A DNA stretch of 64,000 bases from Eledone cirrhosa. Its lineage: Eukaryota. Under the pieces are notes generated by a model that saw only the letters and a program-made list of their open reading frames with translations, did not search any database and was not told where the DNA came from. Below are positions 58,441-63,112 of this stretch, piece after piece; positions within the stretch are counted from its first letter, which is position 1; the number at the start of each line of letters is the position of its first letter. Where the stretch lies: the NCBI GenBank assembly GCA_964016885.1, contig CAXHJY010000628.1:1-64000 (forward strand). The letters are read 5' to 3'. Position numbers and translations under genes: made by a program.

Positions 58441-58734
58441 ATACTCACCTTACAGCAGAAACTACAAGATAAATGTCAGTACAACTAAATTCCCATCATG
58501 CACCAAATAACAGAGGTATCTGCTATAATTTCTTCACATTTATAACATTTATAACCCTTTCCTCTACTTACCCATACAGCCAGATCTGCCATTCTTTACA
58601 CGTTCCCCTTCAGCTCAATAATTTAAAGATGTTTTTATATTTCTTTCTCATATTTATGTAATTATAAAAGGTTTTTAAGCCAACTTTGTGAAACACGTGT
58701 ATTTCGAATAAACATACTTTTCTTATTAGGATTA

Positions 58735-59037
58735 CTGCTCTGAAATAGCGATGTATACATGAATGAATTTTATAGTATATTTCGCAATATACCGTATGTT
58801 TAATTAAAAACATTTAGAAGACTATATGCTATCAGTTTTAAAGTAGTGACTATGTCACTTACTTCTTTTCGGCGAAAGAAGGGAGAGAAGCTGAGAGCCT
58901 GTTTCACGCTAGTTGGCGTTCATCAGAGCCACGTCCTCCCATGCTTCCGCCGAAAATTATAGAAGCTGGATTCTTATAGAATTCCAGTAATAATCAAGAG
59001 CTGATTATACAGGGCGATTGCCGGTCCAGCTAAATCT
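58735..59037 (-). mobile_element. Diverged single-unit relative of the 310-bp HHR repeat (family C)
   Basis: Shared anchors in the same order: tgctctgaaatagcgat, gtatgttt..aaacattt.gaagac, HHR, cttatagaat, gcg.ttgccggtcc; span ~300 bp. Confidence 0.8.
58889..58930 (-). ncRNA. Type I hammerhead ribozyme (family C; stem III degenerate)
   Basis: Minus strand GGCU-CUGAUGA-ACGC-CAACUA-GCGU-GAAA-CAGGCUC-UC-AGCU. Confidence 0.72.
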
Positions 59038-59873: not shown

Positions 59874-60002
59874 TATCTTCTGATGAAGAACTAGTTTCCG
59901 AAACATTAAAACTCACTTATTGCTATTCGAAGTGTTAGATAATATATTTCTTAAATGTACTGTGTCATTTTGCTTTTTTTAAAATTTCTGTTTACCTTTT
60001 AC
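59874..60002 (+). mobile_element. pLTR-like repeat with a degenerate HHR (family D)
   Basis: tctt-CTGATGA-agaactagtttcc-GAAA-cattaaaa (59876-59911); downstream part homologous to 2021-2122. Confidence 0.62.

Positions 60003-60844: not shown

Positions 60845-63112
<2,268 letters not shown>

Follow-up and report, generated by a model that had tools for sequence, protein, structure and literature searches.

A covarying RNA fold beyond the catalytic core in hammerhead repeats of Eledone cirrhosa, most likely non-LTR retrozymes

The first 64,000 nucleotides of an Eledone cirrhosa contig (CAXHJY010000628.1, forward strand; hereafter the window), from a microsatellite-rich genome of 3.0 Gb, contain two diverged hammerhead repeats, one at the contig start and the other near 58.7 kb. 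An earlier note had proposed that paired changes between them reveal selection on an RNA structure that extends beyond the catalytic core. Both loci are copies of related hammerhead repeats of ~310 nt, and between subfamilies the outer stem and the 3′ hairpins of these repeats covary. We consider it probable that they are non-LTR retrozymes, non-coding RNAs for which a Penelope-like (Neptune-type) reverse transcriptase (RT) is the predicted means of copying into (AT)n, and that selection acts on the fold of the master RNA.

Two related hammerhead repeats in the window

The repeat at the contig start (family A) comprises the following features:

1–567, minus strand: family A tandem array with a 310-bp period and 1.8 units, extending beyond the contig start
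103–189, minus strand: outer stem and hammerhead of unit 2; core from 160, palindromic stem III at 131–136, predicted cut 130/129
413–499, minus strand: outer stem and hammerhead of unit 1; predicted cut 440/439
569–699, plus strand: part of a family A unit in inverted orientation, directly adjoining the array at its 5′ end, 96% identical to unit positions 137–267

The outer-stem arms of family A lie at 175–189 and 103–117 (minus strand), and the predicted cut monomer, window 130–439 (minus strand), starts and ends in these two arms. In a computed fold of that monomer the outer stem was closed at a mean probability of 0.98, and the family A fold was better than those of shuffled sequences (z = −5.55). 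As a separate observation, three runs listed under other organism codes (X4, X5 and X6; window 28–437) each gave one contig of 340 nt, that is the unit plus 30, with ~97% identity to family A; tandem DNA and a circle fit these contigs equally well, and they are left out of the argument.

The repeat near 58.7 kb (family B), first bounded at 58735–59037, was found to span 58724–59034:

58724–59034, minus strand: family B retrozyme-like unit, a single decayed copy with 92–93% identity to its best genomic relatives
58966–59008, minus strand: two 5′ hairpins (58990–59008 and 58966–58987), kept in B and in sister subfamilies C and D, mostly out of register in A
58942–58956, minus strand: outer stem (extended helix I), 5′ arm
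58887–58932, minus strand: type I hammerhead, predicted cut after 58893
58927–58932/58887–58892, minus strand: hammerhead stem I
58920–58926 and 58902–58905, minus strand: hammerhead core
58906–58919, minus strand: hammerhead stem II
58894–58902, minus strand: hammerhead stem III, broken at 58895
58866–58880, minus strand: outer stem, 3′ arm
58845–58859, minus strand: hairpin after the outer stem
58745–58832, minus strand: 3′ domain, just upstream of two 3′ insertion ends
58827–58832/58745–58750, minus strand: helix enclosing the 3′ domain, around hairpins 58796–58813 and 58774–58793

Relative to family B, this copy carries 13 differences over 291 columns. Four of them fall in helices and three of these break a pair, one being in stem III, where the C15.2–G16.2 pair (58895) is lost. 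Judged by its sequence, the 58.7-kb copy is decaying. Two motifs of the unit (window 59018–59027 and 58818–58824, minus strand) are nearly invariant across A–D and could serve as promoter signals or for protein binding; a TATA-like promoter in the 5′ hairpin is likewise conceivable. A long-range pairing of the two motifs, suggested by RNAalifold, is not claimed here, as it shows no covariation.

Comparison of A with B confirmed the paired changes that had been reported, with some qualifications. Along the 15 positions of the outer stem there are four double changes from A to B (C-G to U-A, A-U to G-C, U-A to C-G and A-U to G-C), one A-U to G.U change and one C-G to C.U mismatch, precisely as described, and stem I is indeed replaced with its pairing retained. 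Stem-loop II has 14 nt in both families, with UUCU/AGAA in A and ACGC/GCGU in B; in register, the 4-bp stem is shifted by one between the families, A adds a U.U pair at the base, two pairs change on both sides and one is kept. The neighbouring 5′ hairpin, described earlier as kept, agrees between the families in position and apex, but of its 9 B pairs just 5 hold in A. Wobble pairs favour the minus strand, as the earlier note had stated, but folding energy does not, since family B gives −87.1 kcal/mol (z = −4.0) on the minus strand and −87.2 kcal/mol (z = −4.5) on the plus strand. Strand choice by folding energy was rejected because both strands are equally stable, and the strand was assigned from the catalytic core. 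The two loci also align outside that core, with 78% identity over 93 nt at the 3′ end. Family A has a 6-bp hairpin at a place similar to that of the 58845–58859 hairpin of B, and the bases of the two are not alignable.

An Rfam scan of the whole window returned only microsatellite-driven miRNA noise. Hammerhead_HH9 is an intronic amniote family and not a repeat. Core, stem I and stem II of its model (RF02275) align with A and B, but the hits are weak (15.4 and 17.1 bits; the gathering score is 52), and stem III of A and B is short and self-complementary, unlike that of HH9.

Several other repeats were observed in the window. At 2450–2630 (minus strand, core at 2613), next to (AT)n, is a third hammerhead-like repeat; its stem III is palindromic, and it has related copies elsewhere at 75–91% identity. 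Another family, with a hammerhead-like core (31624) and a long stem II, is found at 31500–31850 (plus strand) and has 77–96% matches in several loci. A degenerate minimal hammerhead-like motif at 59880–59920 (plus strand) is 78% similar to loci L098 and L235, and a long near-perfect hairpin at 31114–31245 reaches 23.5 bits with the structure model described below and has no proper core. Two-copy tandem repeats of 167–210 bp at 28320–28752, 49994–50372 and 61923–62255 resemble SINE dimers.

Covariation against a neutral control

A strict core-plus-tail pattern gave at least 15,869 matches genome-wide, compared with none for the reversed control, and family A accounted for 99 of the first 100 listed. 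Copies of this family share 99–100% identity; on many contigs they are arrayed in runs of over 20 units, often head to head. For family B, a first look yielded 2,225 candidates, the best 39 others being 92–93% identical, and most copies are monomers or short partial tandems. Further patterns, one of them with 1,465 matches, exposed the sister subfamilies C and D, and 40 loci were fetched. Taken over all loci, 453 near-full units collapsed into 91 distinct sequences, of which 88 were labelled (A 26, B 35, C 12 and D 15); the aberrant units L104 and L113 and the deletion unit L198 stayed unlabelled and outside the counts. The hammerhead core and its three stems are intact in family A and in most B, C and D copies, with no fixed change at 10 core positions. 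Stem III is self-complementary in every subfamily from A to D, as it is in the more distant families E and F. Units abut other units, inverted arms or (AT)n, and the element holds no protein-coding frame.

To follow the helices through these lineages, 76 pairs were fixed from the family B fold and the hammerhead topology, and private changes, seen in only one or two copies, served as the neutral control. Among fixed changes in C and D, pairing was kept in 14 of 17, against 65 of 262 private changes (p = 2.7e-6), and double changes made up 11 of 17 against 4 of 262 (p = 1e-12); the Fisher tests ignore the tree, and the signal is carried by four main lineages only. In the outer stem (13 pairs), pairing was kept in all fixed changes (7/7 in C and D, 5/5 in A) compared with 9/48 private ones. 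The two 3′ hairpins covary too: in the 3′ domain pairing was kept in 3/3 (C, D) and 2/2 (A) changes versus 17/56 private ones. Across 26 representative copies, 20 of the 76 pairs change on both sides, a count matched by 35 of 500 shuffles, and 91.7% of cells are paired, compared with 41–46% when partners are slid. RNAalifold, unprompted, finds the outer stem, stems I and II and both 3′ hairpins.

Covariation is not uniform along the unit. Just 1 of 10 changes keeps pairing in the 5′ hairpins and closing helix of family A, the enclosing and closing helices show no double changes, and only 3 of 12 A-versus-B changes keep pairing when everything outside the hammerhead domain is taken together. 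The hairpin after the outer stem, whose bases could not be aligned between the families, does not enter these A-versus-B counts. With this deeper alignment and its built-in neutral control, the extended fold is real, and the proposal of selection on RNA structure beyond the catalytic core is supported.

The fold was also traced beyond A–D. Two further high-copy hammerhead repeat families, first met in flanks, were designated E (copies L204–L223, L089:598–957 and L105:1165–1524) and F (copies L144–L163), and both keep the helix order of A–D, with outer stem, hammerhead, hairpin and 3′ hairpins. The A–D structure model aligned E copies end to end at 28–38 bits and a sequence-only model recovered one E copy at 15.7 bits; the sequence-only run used default filters and the structure run none, so that the former is no clean control for the latter. 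Family F scored 33–48 bits with the 3′-domain model and 16–27 bits with the structure model (R1), which is no better than wrong-strand hairpins (20–30 bits); for this reason its assignment relies on the 3′-domain model and on inspection.

Paired changes could also arise without RNA selection, if imperfect inverted repeats were repaired at the DNA or cDNA level by template switching from arm onto arm. Fixed doubles (11/17) do outnumber wobble intermediates, 4 of the 20 doubles are transversions, inverted copies form when these elements insert, and both strands fold equally well, all as such hairpin self-correction would have it. However, none of 78 private outer-stem changes was a double, and transitions account for 16 of the 20 fixed doubles but for 54% of private changes (p = 0.015), the excess expected for a path through G.U. 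Wobble states are commonly carried by whole subfamilies, family A stem I showing U.G, A-U, G.U and G-C in different arrays; internal mismatches persist, and the helix order survives in families of little sequence similarity. The direct strand test is weak: with all helices included, common G.U and A.C states stand at 5:3 (p = 0.28 relative to private changes), and at 5:0 only in a subset picked afterwards. On three points, namely the lack of private outer-stem doubles, the transition excess and the stem I wobble states, RNA selection is favoured over hairpin self-correction, which we regard as quite unlikely.

As to where selection acts, one could suppose that the fold is kept for a host function, the loci encoding a co-opted non-coding RNA. 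Retrozyme RNAs are abundant in other animals (according to PMC7229834), which is compatible with this idea without being specific to it. Against it, stem III of the 58.7-kb copy is broken and private changes in that copy disrupt helices, and private changes in family B are alike at paired and unpaired sites (0.87 versus 0.81 per site; these figures and those for transitions are for family B without L014 and L015). We therefore judge a host function very improbable; from the same two observations, the decaying copy and the even private changes, selection likely acts on the fold of transposing master RNAs of a selfish retrozyme and not on the 58.7-kb copy.

Element type and insertion anatomy

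By every feature tested, namely a hammerhead in each unit, short low-GC units (roughly 170–400 nt) occurring both in tandem and dispersed, and no coding frame, A–D appear to be non-LTR retrozymes. Animal non-LTR retrozymes are similarly described as ~300-nt low-GC tandem units with one type I hammerhead each, occurring as monomers to long arrays and having no coding capacity (main texts of PMC7229834 and bioRxiv 10.64898/2026.07.22.740005), and the description of axolotl HHR_Amex2 matches the two-pair stem III of family A and its U.U at the base of stem II. The element type is thus already known, and families A–D add mechanistic leads. Expression and circles have been demonstrated for published retrozymes, whereas A–D are known here from genome sequence; in Xenopus, 8 of 9 retrozymes are reported not to have cleaved (bioRxiv 10.64898/2026.07.22.740005). 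The published structures, in the accounts consulted, are minimum-energy folds of single sequences, with no description of inverted arms, (AT)n targeting or two 3′ ends, and the main texts of PMC7229834 and bioRxiv 10.64898/2026.07.22.740005 mention neither covariation nor octopus. Our literature search found no account of families A–D or of an animal retrozyme structure based on covariation; repeat databases may already name these families.

(AT)n follows 22 of 22 true family A ends (among 26 rows). In family B, 28 of 30 loci were scored (one doubtful), and in 23 of them (AT)n follows the 3′ end; the 58.7-kb copy is an exception. Family A has two 3′ ends, 26 nt apart, and all seven loci with both arms scored, out of 11 examined, have one long and one short end; by a noisier rule the same holds for 11 of 16 B–D loci. 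The two arms of head-to-head arrays carry the same array-specific alleles and each ends in (AT)n, consistent with their having formed at insertion.

The genome contains numerous GIY-YIG elements with a cysteine linker of Neptune type, as assigned with the help of PMC8557442. One young Neptune-like family (L227, L228, L231, L236 and L238) combines RT and GIY-YIG domains, with 93–98% identity among its five copies; it carries a 3′ hammerhead of its own and ends in (TA)n at either of two alternative 3′ positions. It is a candidate trans partner, and it shows no sequence similarity to A–D. No terminal homology to A–D was found by BLAST in 30 + 20 GIY-YIG loci, the 3′-domain model gave no match below E 0.09 on 11 such loci, and at locus L115 an inverted B pair lies well past a GIY-YIG gene.

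Penelope-like elements are reported to have inverted 5′ copies, a tail confined to one end and a microsatellite bias (PMC8557442). One such protein nicks both strands of AT-rich DNA and starts within an RNA stem-loop at two adjacent sites, the hammerhead being dispensable for insertion in vitro (PMC11167929). The features that the Neptune and Naiad clades (PMC8557442, PMC4209133 and PMC11167929) share with A–D are a hammerhead with a palindromic stem III, partial tandems, an inverted 5′ copy, an optional one-end tail, a microsatellite bias and two RT start sites at a stem-loop. Of these, the partial tandems, inverted 5′ copy, one-end tail and microsatellite target were all found in A–D elements. 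In contrast to Neptune and Naiad, A–D lack an RT/GIY-YIG frame, can string over 20 short units together in an array and have a tail of 26 nt instead of 30–40, with no terminal-repeat homology to the sampled elements.

Given these likenesses, the units might be solo terminal repeats that an autonomous Penelope-like element has shed; the fold would then have been selected in that element, the arrays having grown later by unequal crossing-over. An origin of retrozymes from Penelope-like terminal repeats has been argued (in bioRxiv 10.64898/2026.07.22.740005), the Penelope-like tail, inverted arms and microsatellite bias agree with it, and so does the prevalence of monomers and short partial tandems in family B. 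However, no reading frame adjoins any of the A–D units examined, none of 50 GIY-YIG loci ends in an A–D unit, and the shared alleles and (AT)n ends of the array arms are in keeping with formation at insertion. We find shed repeats an unlikely source, and return to non-LTR retrozymes mobilised in trans as the preferred reading.

A predicted route of transposition

For such retrozymes, arrays would give read-through transcripts in which each unit is cut once, probably by hammerheads acting as dimers. Dimeric cutting is suggested by the self-complementary stem III of every subfamily, a hallmark of hammerheads proposed to cut as dimers (see the discussions in PMC4209133 and PMC6765202). The outer stem would clamp both monomer ends together, allowing ligation into a circle; RtcB is reported to circularise other retrozymes in vitro (PMC7229834). 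The 3′ domain, immediately ahead of the two start sites, is the likely binding signal for a Penelope-like protein, and reverse transcription may start at two nearby sites and yield one long-ended and one short-ended arm. After insertion, copies would decay neutrally, as the 58.7-kb copy appears to do.

A more specific version can be put forward only tentatively, and we hold it to be possible rather than probable. Animal retrozymes may have a conserved modular architecture in which an end-clamping outer stem is combined with a 3′ two-hairpin domain recognised by a dimer of a Neptune-type protein. This dimer would prime on both nicked (AT)n strands 26 nt apart and roll round one RNA circle, producing head-to-head arrays. 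If this modular reading is true, the repeats would show directly, at the genomic level, how retrozymes move and would supply ready substrates for studying it, and the architecture of a retrozyme would have been read for the first time from natural covariation.

All in all, this clade amounts to a natural experiment, in which several dated subfamilies and thousands of neutrally decaying copies show which helices a mobile RNA needs. Through insertion anatomy, beyond mere co-occurrence, retrozymes are tied to Penelope-like transposition, and two questions become testable: which RNA feature a Penelope-like RT recognises, and whether circles are the template.
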